Notes: generated from the letters alone by a model not told the origin. A stretch of 32,770 nucleotides of DNA from a virus (IMGVR_UViG_2913192161_000005:1-32770), one strand, 5' to 3'. Counted from the stretch's first letter, positions 2,829 through 25,866 are shown. Program-made: numbers and translations.

Positions 2829-3127
2829 TGTCCTGTTCTCATTCAGTTGTATTACTGAACAATGCCTTAAAAATCTCCGTTATGAAAAATGGCGATTTGT
2901 CTCTTATTCAACTTTGTCTTGATAAAGAAAAACGCGACATAACTGAATCTGTTATCGCGATTTATCAGAATGAATTAAACCTCCTGTCTGATGTGGTCAA
3001 TTTACTTGTTAAACGCGCTGTATTCCACAAGCAAATTTCCTCAGTGGATGAACTGACAAAATTAACGACAGAACTTGCCAGTTATTGCGCTGATGTATCC
3101 AGGAAACTTAACGATAAAAGGAGCTGA
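2828..3127 (+). CDS. Hypothetical early-region protein, 99 aa
   Basis: ORF track 2825..3127 (TTG); ATG at 2828 overlaps upstream stop, suggesting translational coupling. Confidence 0.5.
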   Translation: MSCSHSVVLLNNALKISVMKNGDLSLIQLCLDKEKRDITESVIAIYQNELNLLSDVVNLLVKRAVFHKQISSVDELTKLTTELASYCADVSRKLNDKRS

Positions 3128-3129
3128 TA

Positions 3130-3354
3130 ATGCCGGACAACGTAGATTTTATTCAGGAACAACAGGCTGAATTACTGGAGCGCCAGATTAACGCGGCAAG
3201 GGTAAAACATTGCGGTGCTTCTGCGCTGGTTTGCGAAGAGTGTGACGCGCCAATACCTGCTGCCCGTCGTGCGGCTTATCCGTCAGCCACGCGTTGTGTT
3301 TCCTGTCAGTCAGTCTTTGAAGCAAAAAACAAACATTACCGGAGAACGGCATGA
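3130..3354 (+). CDS. TraR/DksA-family C4 zinc-finger protein, 74 aa
   Basis: ORF 3130..3354 with AAGGAGC upstream. Contains CxxC-(17)-CxxC (CEECDAPIPAARRAAYPSATRCVSC), typical of TraR/DksA-type zinc fingers. Confidence 0.6.
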   Translation: MPDNVDFIQEQQAELLERQINAARVKHCGASALVCEECDAPIPAARRAAYPSATRCVSCQSVFEAKNKHYRRTA

Positions 3355-3626
3355 GTATTCGTATTGAAATTGGCGAACGTTATGTCGTTACCAGTGACAG
3401 CTTTCAGTTTATTCTCCACGAGAAAAAGAGAGCTGAAAGCGGTAAAAACGCCGGTCAGGAATGGCTGGCGGTGGTTGGTTATTACCCGAAATTAAGCCAG
3501 CTCGTTTCCGGCCTGATGCATCACGATATTCTGACCGGAAGCGCAAAGTCTTTTGCTGATTTAAACGCGCAGGTTGAGCAACTCAGCAAGCGTTGTTCAG
3601 AGGCTTTTGGCTCATATGGCCGTTAA
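3351..3626 (+). CDS. Hypothetical protein, 91 aa (P2 orf83 position)
   Basis: ORF 3351..3626 with GGAGA upstream; 3' end overlaps start of A. Confidence 0.5.
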   Translation: MSIRIEIGERYVVTSDSFQFILHEKKRAESGKNAGQEWLAVVGYYPKLSQLVSGLMHHDILTGSAKSFADLNAQVEQLSKRCSEAFGSYGR

Positions 3627-5901
3627 AGCCTCCGGGCGTTTTGTCCCTCCGTCAGCATTTGCCGCAGGCACCGGTAAGACGTTTACCGGTGCTTATGCAT
3701 GGAACGCGCCACGCGAGGCTGTCGGGCGCGAAAGACCCCTTACACGTGACGAGATGCGTCAGGTGCAAGGTGTTTTATCCACGATTAACCGCCTGCCTTA
3801 CTTTTTGCGCTCGCTGTTTACTTCACGCTATGACTACATTCGGCGCAATAAAAGCCCGGTGCACGGGTTTTATTTCCTCACATCCACTTTTCAGCGTCGT
3901 TTATGGCCGCGCATTGAGCGCGTGAATCAGCGCCATGAAATGAATACCGACGCGTCGTTGCTGTTTCTGGCAGAGCGTGACCACTATGCGCGCCTGCCTG
4001 GAATGAATGACAAGGAGCTGAAAAAGTTTGCTGCCCGTATCTCATCGCAGCTTTTCATGATGTATGAGGAACTCTGCGATGCCTGGGTTGATGCACATGG
4101 CGAGAAAGAATCGCTGTTTACGGATGAGGCGCAGGCTCACCTGTATGGTCATGTTGCTGGTGCTGCACGTGCTTTCAATATTTCCCCGCTCTACTGGAAA
4201 AAATACCGTAAAGGGCAGATGACCACGAGGCAGGCATATTCTGCCATTGCCCGCCTGTTTAACGATGAGTGGTGGACTCATCAGCTTAAAGGCCAGCGTA
4301 TGCGCTGGCATGAGGCGTTACTGATTGCTGTCGGGGAGGTCAATAAAGACCGTTCTCCTTATGCCAGTAAACACGCCATTCGTGATGTGCGTGCACGCCG
4401 CCAGGCAAATCTGGAATTTCTTAAATCGTGTGACCTCGAAAACAGGGAAACCGGCGAGCGCATCGACCTTATCAGTAAGGTGATGGGCAGTATTTCTAAT
4501 CCAGAAATTCGCCGGATGGAGCTGATGAACACCATCGCCGGAATTGAGCGTTACGCCGCCGCAGAGGGTGATGTGGGGATGTTTATCACGCTGACCGCGC
4601 CGTCAAAGTATCACCCGACACGTCAGGTCGGAAAAGGCGAAAGTAAAACCGTCCAGCTTAATCACGGCTGGAACCATGAGGCATTTAATCCAAAGGATGC
4701 GCAGCGTTATCTCTGCCGTATCTGGAGCCTGATGCGCACGGCATTCAAAGATAATGATTTACAGGCCTACGGTTTGCGTGTCGTTGAGCCACACCACGAC
4801 GGAACGCCGCACTGGCATATGATGCTTTTTTGTAATCCACGCCAGCGTAACCAGATTATCGAAATCATGCGTCGCTATGCGCTCAAAGAGGATGGCGACG
4901 AAAGAGGAGCCGCGCGAAACCGTTTTCAGGCGAAACACCTTAACCGGGGCGGTGCTGCGGGGTATATCGCGAAATACATCTCAAAAAATATCGACGGCTA
5001 TGCACTGGATGGTCAGCTCGATAATGATACCGGCAGACCGCTGAAAGACACTGCCGCGGCTGTTACCGCATGGGCGTCAACGTGGCGCATCCCGCAATTT
5101 AAAACGGTTGGTCTGCCGACAATGGGGGCTTACCGTGAACTACGCAAATTGCCTCGCGGCGTCAGCATTGCTGATGAGTTTGACGAGCGCGTCGAGGCTG
5201 CACGCGCCGCTGCAGACAGTGGTGATTTTGCGTTGTATATCAGCGCGCAGGGCGGGGCAAATGTCCCGCGCGATTGTCAGACTGTCAGGGTCGCCCGTAG
5301 CCCGTCGGATGACGTTAACGAGTACGAGGAAGAAGTCGAGAGAGTGGTCGGCATTTACGCGCCGCATCTCGGCGCGCGTCATATTCATATCACCAGAACG
5401 ACGGACTGGCGCATTGTGCCGAAAGTGCCGGTCGTTGAGCCTTTGACTTTAAAAAGCGGCATCGCCGCGCCTCGGAGTCCTGTCAATAACTGTGGAAAGC
5501 TCACCGGTGGTGATACTTCGTTACCGGCTCCCACACCTTCTGAACACGCCGCAGCAGTGCTTAATCTGGTTGATGATGGTGTTATCGAATGGAATGACCC
5601 GGAGGTCGTGAGGGCGCTCAGGGGCGCATTAAAACACGACCTGAGAACACCAAACCGTCAGCAAAGAAACGGAAGCCCGTTAAAACCACATGAAATTGCA
5701 CCATCGGCCAGACTTACCCGGTCGGAAAGAATGCAAATTACCCGTATCCGCGTTGACCTTGCTCAGAAGGGTATCAGGCCGCAGCGATGGGAGCTTGAGG
5801 CGCTGGCGCGTGGCGCGACCGTAAATTATGACGGGAAAAAATTCACGTATCCGGTCGCTGATGAGTGGCCGGGATTCTCAACAGTAATGGAGTGGAGATG
5901 A
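3616..5901 (+). CDS. A: Rolling-circle replication initiator A (P2 gpA), 761 aa
   Basis: ORF track 3574..5901 (TTG); ATG at 3616 gives MAVKASGRFVPPSAFAAGTGK..., matching my recollection of the P2 gpA N-terminus, and gives the 761-aa length I recall for P2 A. Contains HWHMMLF and the catalytic-type YIAKYISKN tyrosine motif. Confidence 0.93.
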   Translation: MAVKASGRFVPPSAFAAGTGKTFTGAYAWNAPREAVGRERPLTRDEMRQVQGVLSTINRLPYFLRSLFTSRYDYIRRNKSPVHGFYFLTSTFQRRLWPRIERVNQRHEMNTDASLLFLAERDHYARLPGMNDKELKKFAARISSQLFMMYEELCDAWVDAHGEKESLFTDEAQAHLYGHVAGAARAFNISPLYWKKYRKGQMTTRQAYSAIARLFNDEWWTHQLKGQRMRWHEALLIAVGEVNKDRSPYASKHAIRDVRARRQANLEFLKSCDLENRETGERIDLISKVMGSISNPEIRRMELMNTIAGIERYAAAEGDVGMFITLTAPSKYHPTRQVGKGESKTVQLNHGWNHEAFNPKDAQRYLCRIWSLMRTAFKDNDLQAYGLRVVEPHHDGTPHWHMMLFCNPRQRNQIIEIMRRYALKEDGDERGAARNRFQAKHLNRGGAAGYIAKYISKNIDGYALDGQLDNDTGRPLKDTAAAVTAWASTWRIPQFKTVGLPTMGAYRELRKLPRGVSIADEFDERVEAARAAADSGDFALYISAQGGANVPRDCQTVRVARSPSDDVNEYEEEVERVVGIYAPHLGARHIHITRTTDWRIVPKVPVVEPLTLKSGIAAPRSPVNNCGKLTGGDTSLPAPTPSEHAAAVLNLVDDGVIEWNDPEVVRALRGALKHDLRTPNRQQRNGSPLKPHEIAPSARLTRSERMQITRIRVDLAQKGIRPQRWELEALARGATVNYDGKKFTYPVADEWPGFSTVMEWR

Positions 5902-17877: not shown

Positions 17878-18951
17878 TTACTTGCCATTTTTCAATGCAT
17901 TGATTAACGATGCTATTTGTTCAATACCATCAAATGTAGATGGTATCTTATCATCGGATAGCATGATGTTCGAAAATACTACGTCTTCAAATTTTGAAAG
18001 AGCTTCTGGGTTGTTTTCCCTTATCTCTGAGGAATAGTCGCTATAACTCTGAATAAACTGACAAAGGCTCTTTCTGAGTTCTATTTGCATAATCTGAGTT
18101 CGTAACGATATGTGATTTATCAGTACAACTCTAAAGTAATACATGAAAATCAATGTGACTGATGCAAAAGGTAGTGCTGACATGAAATATGTGGCAGCAT
18201 TTGTCGTTTCGAGAGTTGGTAATTTATGCATTCCATAGTATATCAGCGGGGATGGGATGATTATAGCTAAGATGATAAGGATTATTCTTGATAGTAAAAT
18301 TTCACGTTCTTTCTTTTTGCCAAGTGAATTAAAGCCTTCAAACAATCCAACAAAATTAAATGCGACCTCATACCCTTTCAATGATTCTTTAATTGACTCT
18401 ATTTTGGTATGTTGTTCCTTTAAAAAGGACTCGCATTTTTCGAAAAATTGACGACCTTCGCTTAAACTATCAATATATTTTTTATATGTGTCCACATTGC
18501 CTGAGCTTAAAACTTCTTTAACCATTGCTAATGGTAGTTCTCTAAGAGAAAAGTCTATCTGTGCTCTGCTTTGTTCATCGAATTCATTATAGTTATACAG
18601 AGCGAAATCCTTGATGGTTTTTAGTGGTGAAAAGAAAGTATCTGTCTCAGGAGAGAGAATACTTGGCTCAATAATAAATCTAAAAAAACAAGTGAATATA
18701 AAATTGATGCTGTTGTTATCCTCTCCCTTTTCTTTTAATAAGTTTGTAAAGGTATTACCAATCCTGACAATGTTGTACTGGGATTTTTTGTCCCAATCTT
18801 CTGGGTTTTCAGAAATGAAGTCTATTGCTTGAGCAATTATTTTGTTTCTGTTTGATTCAAAGGTTGTGCTGGGTGTCAGCGTGTTCAAAAAGACCAGATA
18901 ATCTTTGAACAATTCTTTCATTGTTTTTGATGAGAAAAAGTAAGTGTTCAT
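17878..18951 (-). CDS. Cargo membrane protein at the orf30 locus, about 358 aa (start uncertain: 18951, 18921 or GTG 19047)
   Basis: ORF track 17878..19047 minus; the GTG at 19047 would overlap the V start, so ATG 18951 (MNTYFF...) or 18921 (MKELFK...) is more likely. Soluble N-terminal region of about 250 aa, then two hydrophobic helices (ILLSRIILIILAIIIPSPLIYYG, AATYFMSALPFASVTLIFMYYFRVVLI), then a C-terminal domain of about 80 aa. AT-rich, opposite strand to flanking late genes. Confidence 0.7.
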   Translation of the reverse strand: MNTYFFSSKTMKELFKDYLVFLNTLTPSTTFESNRNKIIAQAIDFISENPEDWDKKSQYNIVRIGNTFTNLLKEKGEDNNSINFIFTCFFRFIIEPSILSPETDTFFSPLKTIKDFALYNYNEFDEQSRAQIDFSLRELPLAMVKEVLSSGNVDTYKKYIDSLSEGRQFFEKCESFLKEQHTKIESIKESLKGYEVAFNFVGLFEGFNSLGKKKEREILLSRIILIILAIIIPSPLIYYGMHKLPTLETTNAATYFMSALPFASVTLIFMYYFRVVLINHISLRTQIMQIELRKSLCQFIQSYSDYSSEIRENNPEALSKFEDVVFSNIMLSDDKIPSTFDGIEQIASLINALKNGK

Positions 18952-19037
18952 TATGGATTTTGTTGTCCCTTGTTGTTCTGTGCACCAGAAATCGTTGCGT
19001 GATTTACTTCGGGATTGTACAGAATCATTATTCTCGA

Positions 19038-19667
19038 ATGAATACACAATACAATGAAATACTTCGCTTTATACGCAATATGATTCGCACCGGCATTATC
19101 GTCGAAACCGACCTTAACGCCGGTCGCTGCCGTGTGCAGACCGGCGGCATGTGCACCGACTGGCTTCAGTGGCTGACCCATCGCGCCGGACGTTCGCGCA
19201 CATGGTGGGCACCTTCCGTGGGGGAACAGGTGTTGATTCTGTCCGTGGGCGGTGAACTCGACACGGCGTTTGTTCTGCCGGGGATTTATTCCGGCGATAA
19301 TCCCGCGCCGTCTGCGTCGGCGGATGCCCTGCATATCCGTTTCCCTGACGGGGCGGTGATTGAGTATGAACCCGAAACCAGTGCACTTACGGTAAGCGGA
19401 ATTAAAACGGCCAGCGTGACGGCTTCTGATTCTGTTACCGCCACGGTGCCTGTGGTCATGGTGAAAGCATCAACCCGCGTCACCCTGGACACACCGGAGG
19501 TGGTCTGCACCAACAGGCTGATTACCGGCACGCTGGAAGTGCAGAAGGGCGGGACGATGCGCGGCAACATTGAACACACCGGCGGTGAACTCTCATCAAA
19601 CGGTAAGGTACTGCATACCCATAAACACCCCGGCGACAGCGGCGGCACAACCGGGAGTCCTCTATGA
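19038..19667 (+). CDS. V: Baseplate spike/assembly protein V, 209 aa
   Basis: ATG at 19038 within ORF 18921..19667; size close to P2 V; first gene of the V-W-J-I-H-G block. Confidence 0.88.
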   Translation: MNTQYNEILRFIRNMIRTGIIVETDLNAGRCRVQTGGMCTDWLQWLTHRAGRSRTWWAPSVGEQVLILSVGGELDTAFVLPGIYSGDNPAPSASADALHIRFPDGAVIEYEPETSALTVSGIKTASVTASDSVTATVPVVMVKASTRVTLDTPEVVCTNRLITGTLEVQKGGTMRGNIEHTGGELSSNGKVLHTHKHPGDSGGTTGSPL

Positions 19668-21457: not shown

Positions 21458-24082
21458 ATGAGCACGAAATTTAAAACCGTTATCACTACTGCCGGAGCCG
21501 CAAAGCTGGCAGCCGCCACTGTCCCCGGCGGGAAAAAAGTAAACCTGTCTGCAATGGCCGTGGGTGACGGTAATGGCAAATTGCCGGTGCCGGATGCCGG
21601 TCAGACGAAACTGGTGCATGAGGTCTGGCGTCATGCTCTGAATAAAGTCAGCGTGGATAATAAGAATAAAAACTATATCGTGGCTGAACTGGTTGTACCG
21701 CCCGAAGTGGGCGGCTTCTGGATGCGTGAGCTTGGTCTGTATGACGATGCCGGAACACTGATTGCGGTATCCAACATGGCAGAAAGCTATAAACCAGAAC
21801 TGGCTGAAGGCTCCGGACGTGCGCAGACCTGCCGCATGGTTATTATTCTCAGCAATGTGGCGTCCGTTGAGCTGAGTATTGATGCCAGCACAGTGATGGC
21901 GACGCAGGATTATGTCGATGACAAAATCGCAGAGCATGAGCAGTCCCGCCGCCATCCTGACGCCACGCTGACAGAAAAAGGTTTTACTCAGTTAAGCAGT
22001 GCAACAAACAGCACCAGTGAAAAGCTGGCGGCAACGCCAAAGGCAGTAAAAGCAGCCTATGACAATGCTGAGAAACGTCTGCAGAAAGACCAGAACGGTG
22101 GCGATATTCCAGATAAGGGCGCTTTTCTGGACAATATTGGCGTTACCAGCCTGACGTTTATGAAACACAATGGAATGATTCCAACCACTGACAATCTTGA
22201 CTCCTATGGCCCAGAAGAAAAATATCTTGGAACGTGGTCATGTCCGTCACAATCCACTGCAAAACCAGAGTCTGGTTACCCTGAAGATAAAGGCAATGGG
22301 GTTCTGGAAGTATTCAATGCTGGTCGCTTTCACTGCACACAACGCTACACCACCCGAACCGGTAATATTTACATTCGGATGCTTGATGCAGAATGGAACC
22401 CTGTCAGTCCTGTATGGAGTGCATGGAGAGTTATTACAAGCGGGACTCGCCCATTAAGCACGTCAATTGACCTGAATTCTTTAGGTGGTGCGGAACACCT
22501 GGGAATATGGCGCAATAGCAGTACATCAATAGCCTCATTTGACCGTCATTTCCCGGAGGAAGGGAGTTTTGGGCAGGGTATTCTGGAAGTCTTTGAAGGC
22601 GGTCTGTATGGGAGGATGCAACGTTACACCACCCGTAGTGGGACTATGTACATTCGCGGACTGACTGCCTCATGGGATGCAGAAAATCCACAATGGGAGG
22701 ACTGGATTGCTGTTGGGTATCAGTCCACGGGATGGACTTATTCAGGGGATCTTGATGACCTTTTAAAGCCTGGTATTTATAGCGTTACGAAACAGGCCAC
22801 AAATGCACCTGTCACCGACTCTAAAGATCTTGCTGTTGGCTCAATAGTTGAAGTGAAAAAACGTTGTGATATTGAATCGTATATCCAGACATACACGACT
22901 GTTTCAGCAACGGATGCCTATAAAAACCGGACATTTCAGCGAACCCGCGCCAGCGGTGAAACTGACTGGGGGGAATGGGCGGAAGTATACAACTCAAAAT
23001 CATTACTCACTAAATTAGGTGTCGGCGGTGTTACCGACAGGTTATCCAGTCTGGACTGGCAGACCTACGACTTTATACCGGGCAGCATGATAACTGTCAG
23101 GCTTTCAGATATGACCAATATTCCCGATGGGATGGAATGGGGCGTCATTGATACTAACCTGATAAATATCACTGTTGGCCCCAGTGAAGGCGGAGGTGTC
23201 GCCCGTTCAATGCAGGTATGGCGCAGCACTTCAAACAAAACCAACTATCGTTTTTTTACAGTCCGCTTATATGGAAATCCTGGGGAGCGTAGCTTCAATA
23301 TTCGTCGGCTACCAATTATCGACGAAGCCCAGACATGGGAGGCAAAACAGACATTCAGTGCAGGCCTTTCTGGTGAACTGTCCGGCAATGCGGCTACAGC
23401 AACAAAGCTGAAAACGGCAAGGACAATTAACGGCGTAAAATTTGACGGCTCGGCAAATATTGAAGCGTTTCCGCCTGGTGTTCCGCTGCCGTGGCCATCA
23501 GATACACCACCTGCGGGCTATGCAATTATGCAGGGGCAGACGTTTGATAAGGCAGCATATCCGAAACTGGCTATAGCCTATCCTTCTGGTGTTATTCCAG
23601 ATATGCGCGGCTGGACAATCAAGGGCAAACCCGCCAGTGGGCGTGCCGTATTGTCACAGGAACAGGACGGGATTAAATCGCATACTCACAGCGCCAGTGC
23701 GTCAAATACGGATTTGGGAACGAAAACAACCAGTTCATTTGATTACGGCACGAAGACAGTCAGTACGTTTAACTACGGAACAAAAACCACTAATACCACA
23801 GGTAACCATACACATACCATTTACAGAGGGAATGCCAATACTAATGGTGAAACCGGTAAAACAGGCTTTGACAACCCATCGTTTAATGGCACATCAGGAG
23901 CTGCCGGGAATCATGCCCACACGGTAGATATTGGAGCACATAACCATACTGTTGGTATTGGTGCACATTCACACACGGTTGCTATTGGCTCACACGGGCA
24001 CTCTATTACCGTTAATGCTACAGGTAATACCGAAAACACCGTCAAAAACATCGCATTTAACTATATTGTGAGGCTTGCATAA
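21458..24082 (+). CDS. H: Tail fibre protein H, 874 aa (P2-like N-terminus, divergent distal part)
   Basis: ORF 21458..24082. N-terminal roughly 200 aa ([25 protein letters not shown]...[43 protein letters not shown]) matches my recollection of P2 H. C-terminus has His-x-His-rich repeats ([36 protein letters not shown]) typical of fibre tips. Longer than the size I recall for P2 H. Confidence 0.9.
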
Positions 24083-24660
24083 TGGCTTTCAGAATGAGTG
24101 CAGAAGCACAAACTATCCGCGTTTTCAATTTACTTGATGGAACCAATGAATTTATTGGCGAAAGTGATGCATATATTCCGCCGCATACAGGTCTGCCTGC
24201 AAACAGTACAGATATTACACCACCTGATATTCCGGCGGGTTTTGCTGCCGTTTTCAATGCAGATGAAATGAAATGGGAACTGATGGAAGACCATCGCGGA
24301 AAGACTGTCTATGAAACGAAAACGGGAGCAGCCATTTATATTTCTGAACTTGGCGCATTACCTCCAGACGTGACAGCCATTTCCCCGGAGGGGGATTATC
24401 AGAAATGGAACGGCAATGCGTGGGTGAATGATGAGAATGCAGAGCGTGATGCGCTTGTCAGAGCGGCTGACTCTCAGAAGAAAGAGCTGATTGCATATGC
24501 AGGTGAAATTATTGCCACGCTGCAGGATGCTGTCGATTTAGATATGGCTACCGAGGAAGAAAAGTTAAGCCTGACACACTGGAAAAAATACCGTGTGTTA
24601 CTGAATCGCGTTCAGCCGGAAGATGCTCCGGATATAGAATGGCCGGAAATGCCGCAATAA
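24082..24660 (+). CDS. G: Tail fibre assembly chaperone G, 192 aa
   Basis: ORF 24082..24660 starting at the H stop (TAATG); position as P2 G. Confidence 0.85.
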
Positions 24661-24759: not shown

Positions 24760-25866
24760 TTATACACCATGTAAAAAACGGTTATTTCTTCGTCGCTCTC
24801 CCTCGCTGCTAACTTCATTAAAAAATCCTCTGCTAACATCATCAGAAACATCAATAATGTGTTTTAACGCAGAAAGGGTCTCAAATTGCTTGCTCGTTAA
24901 GGCTGACTTATCAATCGCTAATTGCTCGTCATTTACATCTTTTAAGTAAGAAAAATACTTACCCAAAAAGCCTGCGATAACATCAGATAGTTGGACAGCC
25001 TCTGAGTCGTGGGATTTAACGAATTCATGATTCTGTATTGGTATGCCATTTTCAGTTAACGGGAAGTTTTTAACTTCATCTTGAATGCTTTTTTCTTCAT
25101 CAAATATGTGAATGGAATTTTTAAATAGATACAAGTTTCTTAAATAGAATACCATAAAGCTATCGATCAGTTCTCGACCATGAAATCCCGATATGAACGG
25201 TAGTTCTTCGATTTTTAGAGATTCTTTAACCAAATTTTCGAGTGCGAGTGCTCGAAAATCTGGTAGCATACAACTGTGCATGCATGTAAAATCGATAAGC
25301 CAGAGGCAAAACTCATAAACTTTTTCTTCTGGAATATCGGGGTAGTTAAATTTATGTAGAGCATTCAGGAAAACATCGGGATTGCTATTGGCAAGCTCAT
25401 AAAAATCGCTCTTAAATGACATGTGGTTCATGATATAAAAAGGATTGTGTAGCTCTCCAATAATAGAATCAACAATGTCAATAATAGACCAGTATGTGAC
25501 ATTAAGATTAAAATAATGGATATAGAAATTGTTTTCGATAAGCCAGTTTAGAATAATTAAAATCTTATCAGATTTAAGCATGTCCAAAAAACTACCCTTA
25601 GCAATATGTCTGAGTTTTAACTCATGGGCACTTTTTTGAAGATTAAGCTTTTGAAATAGGGTTGAATAATCGCTGTCAGTGCTTAACCCTTTGTGTAGTA
25701 TTCCTGCAAGGATGAAATTATCCGCCTTTACAACATTGAAACCAGAATCTTTTAAATATAGTTTTCGAATGTTATTCGTTTCATCATAATAAAACGTATA
25801 GACTTCATCAGTATTTTGAAGACCATTATGCTTGATAAGTAACTCTCTAAGTTCATTGACATCCAT
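24760..25866 (-). CDS. Cargo protein at the Z/fun locus, 368 aa, with DUF3800-like motifs (tentative)
   Basis: ORF 24760..25866 minus, ATG at 25866. AT-rich; opposite strand to G and FI. N-terminal YTFYYDETNN and C-terminal VQLSDVIAGFLG resemble the D-E-S and Q..D motif pair I associate with DUF3800; unverified. Confidence 0.75.
   Translation of the reverse strand: MDVNELRELLIKHNGLQNTDEVYTFYYDETNNIRKLYLKDSGFNVVKADNFILAGILHKGLSTDSDYSTLFQKLNLQKSAHELKLRHIAKGSFLDMLKSDKILIILNWLIENNFYIHYFNLNVTYWSIIDIVDSIIGELHNPFYIMNHMSFKSDFYELANSNPDVFLNALHKFNYPDIPEEKVYEFCLWLIDFTCMHSCMLPDFRALALENLVKESLKIEELPFISGFHGRELIDSFMVFYLRNLYLFKNSIHIFDEEKSIQDEVKNFPLTENGIPIQNHEFVKSHDSEAVQLSDVIAGFLGKYFSYLKDVNDEQLAIDKSALTSKQFETLSALKHIIDVSDDVSRGFFNEVSSEGERRRNNRFLHGV

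Follow-up and report, generated by a model that had tools for sequence, protein, structure and literature searches.

The window analysed here is a stretch of 32,770 nucleotides (IMGVR_UViG_2913192161_000005:1-32770) with the late genes of a P2-like prophage. Its open reading frames (ORFs) follow the order V-W-J-I-H-G, then a cargo gene and then the sheath gene FI, and are collinear with the P2 late operon and with the annotations of L-413C and P24A7b. Gene H is an ATG-started, uninterrupted ORF on the plus strand (21458..24082, stop codon included) encoding 874 aa, the length also given in a preliminary description of this DNA, and it matches PHROG tail fibre families by profile. The downstream chaperone gene G and the flanking tail genes are likewise intact, and the ATG of G overlaps the stop codon of H in a one-base ATGA overlap. 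The features of the two genes, all on the plus strand, are as follows.

21458..24082, +, gene H, tail fibre protein, 874 aa (ORF; 99.66% aa identity to the P24A7b tail fibre; PHROG)
21458..21910, +, baseplate-attachment domain of P2 gpH type, aa 1-151 (Pfam PF12571 Phage_tail_fib, E 4e-57, full profile)
21965..22087, +, Phage_fiber_2 repeat, aa 170-210 (Pfam PF03406, E 2.8e-21)
22175..22447, +, knob unit 1, aa 240-330
22451..22729, +, knob unit 2, aa 332-424, paralogue of unit 1 (43.75% identity, E 6e-18; hhalign 99.8%)
22736..23014, +, probable third, diverged knob-like unit, aa 427-519 (hhalign, HMM, AF2)
23015..23326, +, fourth beta-rich unit, aa 520-623, fold uncertain (AF2: five strands, mostly pLDDT < 50)
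23378..23449, +, conserved linker, aa 641-664, with junction 2 at nt 23430 (blastn end point against L-413C and NC_070906, multiple alignment)
23477..23620, +, collar domain, aa 674-721 (Pfam PF07484, E 2.6e-10)
23621..24079, +, needle with six HxH motifs and a short divergent head (2XGF match, HxH count)
23822..23902, +, divergent head, about aa 789-815 (alignment to 2XGF)
24082..24660, +, gene G, tail fibre assembly chaperone of lambda Tfa type, 192 aa (Pfam PF02413 Caudo_TAP, E 2e-40)

The ORF map, which covered ORFs of at least 80 aa, gave no sign of an invertible (Mu/P1-type) or diversity-generating tip; past G, the next ORF of that size is a DUF3800 cargo gene on the minus strand, and the sheath gene FI comes after it.

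The genes around the fibre operon deserve a short description of their own. The cargo ORF past G (24760..25866, minus strand, 368 aa, GC 31-37%) lies in the gap between G and FI, where P2 has fun(Z). It matches DUF3800 weakly (PF12686, E 1e-6), the PADLOC candidate defence model PDC-S51 over its full length (E 6.6e-107) and phrog_15126, a family of unknown function; it is probably an anti-phage cargo gene in this classical P2 hotspot. P24A7b carries other genes in the same gap. A second cargo gene flanks the tail-fibre operon in the S/V gap, where P2 has orf30 (17878..19047, minus strand, 389 aa). It had no match in Pfam, NCBIfam or PADLOC and only one to phrog_9373 (unknown function, E 1.7e-126), and since that match begins at aa 47, translation probably starts downstream of the listed GTG. 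At a coverage of 80% or more, the segment is found in 60 of the 5,426 complete E. coli genomes. The baseplate spike gene V (18921..19667, plus strand) is listed with a TTG start and overlaps this upstream minus-strand ORF; comparison with P2 V (211 aa) suggests that its real start is probably an internal ATG giving MNTQYNEILRF...

The exact combination of modules found in H has already been deposited. The tail fibre of Peduovirus P24A7b (YP_009877362), an isolated and ICTV-classified coliphage (Escherichia virus P2_4A7b, NC_049390 / LR595887), is of equal length and 99.66% identical over 874/874 aa, with 3 substitutions, and its assembly protein (YP_009877363) is 96.4% identical to G. The fibre gene holds the same position in the V-W-J-I-H-G operon in both, whereas the S/V and G/FI gaps contain different cargo genes. 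In the P24A7b record H is labelled generically, as 'tail fiber protein' only. The architecture of H and G is shared with P24A7b at 98.3% nucleotide identity, and the 31 nucleotide differences between the two H genes translate into only 3 amino acid changes, indicating that H is under purifying selection. Both genes are present at full length and about 98% nucleotide identity in 20 of the 5,426 complete E. coli genomes, while parts of them match in 3,808. No 100% match was found in the collections searched.

These comparisons bear directly on whether H makes a fibre at all. Tail-fibre genes of prophages are often rearranged, and that observation, together with the missing exact match, could be taken to mean that a defective prophage carries H as a decaying or chimeric remnant, or that H is an assembly artefact, and that it yields no functional fibre. 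We consider this hardly credible: the ORF is unbroken, chaperone and flanking tail genes are intact, the same architecture occurs in an isolated phage as well as in the 20 complete genomes, and the substitutions relative to P24A7b are overwhelmingly synonymous. A pseudogene was rejected on the same grounds of an uninterrupted ORF, a counterpart in an isolated phage and synonymous substitutions. H is an intact tail-fibre gene of a P2-like prophage, and every one of its modules comes from a characterised family. The GC content drops from about 57-60% in the baseplate genes to about 44-50% over most of H and G, which fits a foreign origin of the distal fibre parts.

The first of three modules is the P2 baseplate anchor (aa 1-~210). 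Residues 1-204 are 84.8% identical to the canonical P2 gpH (NP_046775 of NC_001895, 669 aa), and blastp found no similarity to P2 gpH beyond aa 204-207 of H, so that collinearity over shaft and tip is absent. In blastn the DNA homology to P2 extends from gene I to position 22063 and is taken up again only at 24637, the last 24 nt of G, and the density of mismatches to P2 triples past nt 600 of H. Junction 1 is accordingly placed by the blastn end point and alignment at nt 22063 (~aa 202), at the 3' edge of the first Phage_fiber_2 repeat. Residues 167-246 also match the Mu fibre S structures 5YVQ/8JU3. With its Phage_tail_fib N-domain, its place in the V-W-J-I-H-G series and an assembly gene after it, H belongs with the P2 gpH family. 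It exceeds P2 gpH by 205 aa, and the latter, at the same operon position, has neither the knob pair nor the collar and HxH tip. As judged by sequence comparison with P2, H is replaced from about aa 204 onwards, and so is almost the whole of G. The loss of collinearity past aa ~204 is expected of a mosaic member of the family and is likewise seen in L-413C gpH. The preliminary description had proposed that only the N-terminal ~200 aa are P2-like and that the host-range module is swapped relative to P2. Both proposals were borne out, full-length collinearity with P2 H being absent, and the gene proved more modular than had been claimed. Alignment to P2 and L-413C, in line with the check that was suggested with them, located two junctions, one towards P2 (nt 22063) and one towards L-413C (nt 23430).

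The relationship to Yersinia phage L-413C reaches much further into H. Residues 1-675 are 96% identical to L-413C gpH (NP_839867, 913 aa), which covers the P2 anchor and the whole knob module, and only the last ~216 aa of H together with G differ. In blastn the DNA homology to L-413C stops at nt 23430 (aa 658), within the conserved linker, and resumes at 24637. The tip of L-413C is of the gp37_C / gp37_trimer type (PF12604, PF20744) and is accompanied by a P2-type G, unlike the collar, HxH needle and lambda Tfa-type G in the window. Since the homology ends at 23430 and the tip and G of L-413C are of other types, H is an L-413C-type anchor and knob module joined to a lambda/T4-type tip-and-chaperone cassette. 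GpH of L-413C has itself been described as a mosaic of four parts, in which a P2-like N-terminus of 207 aa is followed by a mosaic middle that is not of P2 origin (PMC7460101, citing Garcia et al. 2008). Its binding to Y. pestis cells has been shown experimentally, and its receptor-binding role was demonstrated with fluorescent fusions (PMC7460101).

Two further observations were made in this comparison. Within the first 1973 nt of H, one 150-nt bin (nt 600-750 of H, 22058..22207 in the window, aa ~200-250) holds 20 nucleotide differences from L-413C, against 0-7 in each of the other bins. This patch coincides with the boundary between anchor and knob module, where one of the two sequences compared reads AANDNANSRLAKNQNGADIQDKS, and it suggests a small extra recombination patch at the junction. 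The other concerns the RefSeq entry NC_070906.1, named 'Peduovirus P2' (31,490 bp). Its positions 3001-5760 encode an L-413C-like H of 919 aa that includes the knob module and shares 73% identity with the H of the window over aa 1-675; this is not the canonical 669-aa P2 gpH of NC_001895. Since this entry carries an L-413C-like H, the name 'P2' in a database is no guarantee of the reference fibre.

The second module, the knob module (aa ~224-640), is also found in L-413C gpH and in T-even gp37. It contains the tandem duplication claimed in the preliminary description, whose two quoted strings lie at aa 279-316 (nt 22292-22405) and aa 372-411 (nt 22571-22690), and the repeats hold up under alignment. 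Between the paralogous stretches aa 246-323 and 338-416 the identity is 43.75% over 80 aa (E 6e-18), and the Smith-Waterman score of unit 1 against unit 2 is 161, compared with 28 +/- 4.8 and a maximum of 55 in 500 shuffles. Profile-profile comparison with hhalign, each unit being represented by 21-23 homologues, gave a probability of 99.8% (E 1e-27). A self-blastp of the whole protein returned the identity match alone, and the internal repeat was recovered after the sequence had been split. The following segment (aa 427-519) is a probable diverged knob-like unit: hhalign against unit 1 gave 59% probability (E 9e-5, 32 in-register columns), the HMM domain i-E was 0.1 in H and 0.0017 in the NC_070906 homologue, and a matching strand pattern is seen in the AlphaFold2 (AF2) model at a pLDDT of about 70-80. 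The fourth unit (aa 520-623) showed no profile similarity to units 1-3 (hhalign E 0.2-0.5).

The naming of the module as knob-like draws on homologues and on structure. Database searching with aa 224-660 as query yielded 740 homologues. NCBI calls many of these 'pyocin knob domain-containing protein', including many of 60-65% identity, whereas the region in H itself matches no Pfam or NCBIfam model. Specifically, no Pfam model matched aa 224-660, the NCBIfam scan returned nothing useful for H or G, and a PDB sequence search with full-length H gave for the middle module only chance-level matches to kinesin (E ~0.3-0.7). Gp37 of the T-even Shigella phage JK23, the distal subunit of the long tail fibre, is a homologue of the knob module at 50% identity.

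Residues 224-660 were modelled as a monomer with AF2 from an alignment of 26 sequences. The mean pLDDT is 62, with 70-83 over aa 237-513, and the model displays a 5-6-strand beta unit four times with a period of ~95 aa. Antiparallel 5-6-stranded beta-sheet domains of ~85-95 aa in tandem copies are what defines the pyocin-type knob, and the tandem units of H belong to this fold class. The following structures were tabled with the model, each given here with its tabled value.

6EU4, Acinetobacter phage AS12 tailspike, 10.1
9EUF, phi812 receptor-binding protein, 9.7
6CU2, R2 pyocin fibre, 9.5
6CL6, R2 pyocin fibre, 8.9
5EFV, phi11 receptor-binding protein, 8.5
9B45, Pa193 tail fibre, 8.2
5NXH, T4 gp34, 6.8
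5M9F, phage K gp144, 6.6

Buth et al. give 5EFV, 5M9F and T4 gp34 as relatives of pyocin Knob1/Knob2, and conclude that the two pyocin knobs arose by duplication (PMC6116203). The knob units of H are only 17-19% identical to Knob1-Knob2 of the R1/R2 pyocins (6CL5, 6CL6, 6CU2). The two copies are more alike in H (44% between units 1 and 2) than in the R2 pyocin (20%). Unlike the R1/R2 pyocin fibre, H continues with one or two further units after the knob pair, and it ends in a gp37-type needle where the pyocin fibre ends in a lectin-like foot.

Two adjacent, clearly related units of equal length, in a fibre 205 aa longer than that of P2, might suggest that a recent duplication in situ made the fibre longer in this prophage lineage. 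The age of the units speaks strongly against it. Protein identity between them is merely 44%, and similarity at the DNA level is down to a single 38-nt patch. L-413C gpH and the NC_070906 phage carry the two units in the same order, and of the 120 best database homologues 97 have both, T-even JK23 gp37 among them. Furthermore, each unit aligns more closely with its orthologue in other phages than with its neighbour. The shared two-unit order and the low DNA similarity effectively refute a recent origin. The knob duplication is ancient, an old and fixed feature of a transferable module that is not particular to this phage.

The third module is the tip (aa 655-874), a collar-needle-head of the T4 gp37 / lambda Stf type. 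It matches the T4 gp37 tip structure 2XGF with an E value of 3.4e-76 (phmmer against PDB sequences) and is 58% identical to T4 gp37 785-1026 and 59% to lambda orf-314, the C-terminal part of Stf (blastp). The collar domain, which precedes the needle, is also present in T4 gp37 (816-863) and lambda orf-314 (73-120). Collar, HxH needle and conserved C-terminal strand are shared by H, T4 gp37 and lambda Stf, the identity of 58-59% extending over ~220-260 aa; the H tip is joined to a P2 anchor, while that of T4 sits on the distal half-fibre and that of lambda on the side fibre. Relatives of the tip were found in 629 phage records across P2-like, lambda-like, Felix-O1-like and T-even phages. The last 135 aa contain six HxH motifs (aa 742, 784, 819, 828, 837 and 846), compared with a mean of 0.45 and a maximum of 4 in the shuffled protein. 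T4 gp37 has seven. Two of the six precede the head loop, on the outbound strand, and four follow it on the return strand, as in the out-and-back arrangement of the solved tip. In the alignment to 2XGF the collar, the residues flanking the HxH motifs and the C-terminal strand are conserved, and the ~30 residues between the second and third motif are divergent; the loop is shorter than that of T4 gp37 (about 30 against 32 aa) and has little identity to it.

In the six-stranded needle of T4, the HxH motifs bind iron ions that lie buried along its length (PMC12609058; PMC6116203), and the small head at the turn is the receptor contact (PMC12609058). The R-pyocin fibre shaft and the P2 gpV spike likewise have buried HxH-Fe sites of a structural kind (PMC6116203). 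By homology with T4, we infer that the HxH motifs of H are buried structural iron sites of the needle, below the tip that contacts the receptor, and three symmetry-related motifs would provide octahedral coordination of each Fe. Since the HxH flanks are conserved while the loop between motifs 2 and 3 is divergent, this ~30-residue head (aa ~789-815), and not the HxH repeats, is likely the receptor contact and specificity determinant. An alternative is that the repeats themselves form a receptor-binding or catalytic metal site at the fibre tip, given that they are concentrated in the C-terminal 135 aa and that fibre C-termini usually bind the receptor. This is very improbable, as the segment can be matched one residue at a time to the T4 gp37 tip, where the motifs hold needle iron and the head touches the receptor, as the motifs are equally buried in the pyocin shaft and the gpV spike, and as the divergence lies where a specificity determinant is expected. 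The preliminary description had spoken of a metal-binding fibre tip built from such repeats. The repeats are present, four of the six within 23890-24010, and the tip is homologous to the iron-containing 2XGF; their location has to be corrected, since they lie in the needle shaft and not in the receptor-contacting tip.

The product of gene G is 65% identical to lambda Tfa over the full length and 28% identical to T4 gp38, and the 39% identity to P2 G (NP_046776) is confined to the C-terminal half (aa 95-192). A Caudo_TAP profile (PF02413), a location immediately 3' of the fibre gene, a conserved C-half and a tip-specific N-half are the marks of the Tfa family, and G shows all of them. This two-half pattern matches the two-domain model of Tfa, in which the variable N-terminal domain binds the fibre tip and the conserved C-terminal domain drives trimerisation (PMC9608196). 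The 65% identity to lambda Tfa indicates that tip and chaperone were exchanged together.

The most plausible reading of these observations, to which we would give a probability of about 0.9, is that H is the functional receptor-binding tail fibre of a Peduovirus prophage, assembled from three horizontally exchangeable modules. The N-terminal P2-type anchor would dock a fibre, presumably trimeric, on the baseplate encoded by V-W-J-I. By analogy with pyocin fibres, the knob domains probably act as nuclei of trimerisation and folding and as spacers that set length and rigidity, and they may also bind saccharide or give secondary glycan contacts. Beyond the collar, each chain would run out and back to build a six-stranded needle, in which each of its six HxH motifs would help to coordinate an Fe ion octahedrally on the threefold axis, about six Fe ions in all, and the ~30-residue head at the turn likely contacts the receptor. 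G would be translationally coupled to H through the ATGA overlap; it would align the three C-termini, be required for folding of the tip, and fold and trimerise it from the C-terminus, its variable N-half being matched to the tip and its conserved C-half held in common with P2 G. Host range would have been changed by recombination at the end of the Phage_fiber_2 repeat and at the GNAATATKL...FDG motif, these events moving tip and chaperone as a single cassette.

Glycan binding has been suggested for the knob-like domains of saccharide-binding fibres. One may speculate that H is a two-site adhesin, in which the tandem knob pair, conserved to an unusual degree, binds a surface glycan independently of the head and the head sees a receptor other than the OmpC/LPS of T4. 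We regard this extension as unlikely. If it were true, the combination of P2 anchor, knobs and needle would be a natural scaffold for engineering dual-receptor host range.

H is real but ordinary, and nothing in it goes against current understanding. The junctions at nt 22063 and 23430 are natural splice points for the engineering of P2-based particles. The host-recognition genes of this prophage can be given the precise labels of P2 anchor, knob module, gp37/Stf-type tip and Tfa-type chaperone. Such exchange of modules has been known for the fibres of P2, lambda, Mu, P1 and the T-even phages for decades, and H is a clean example of fibre module exchange at short conserved linkers, with tip and chaperone travelling as a cassette.
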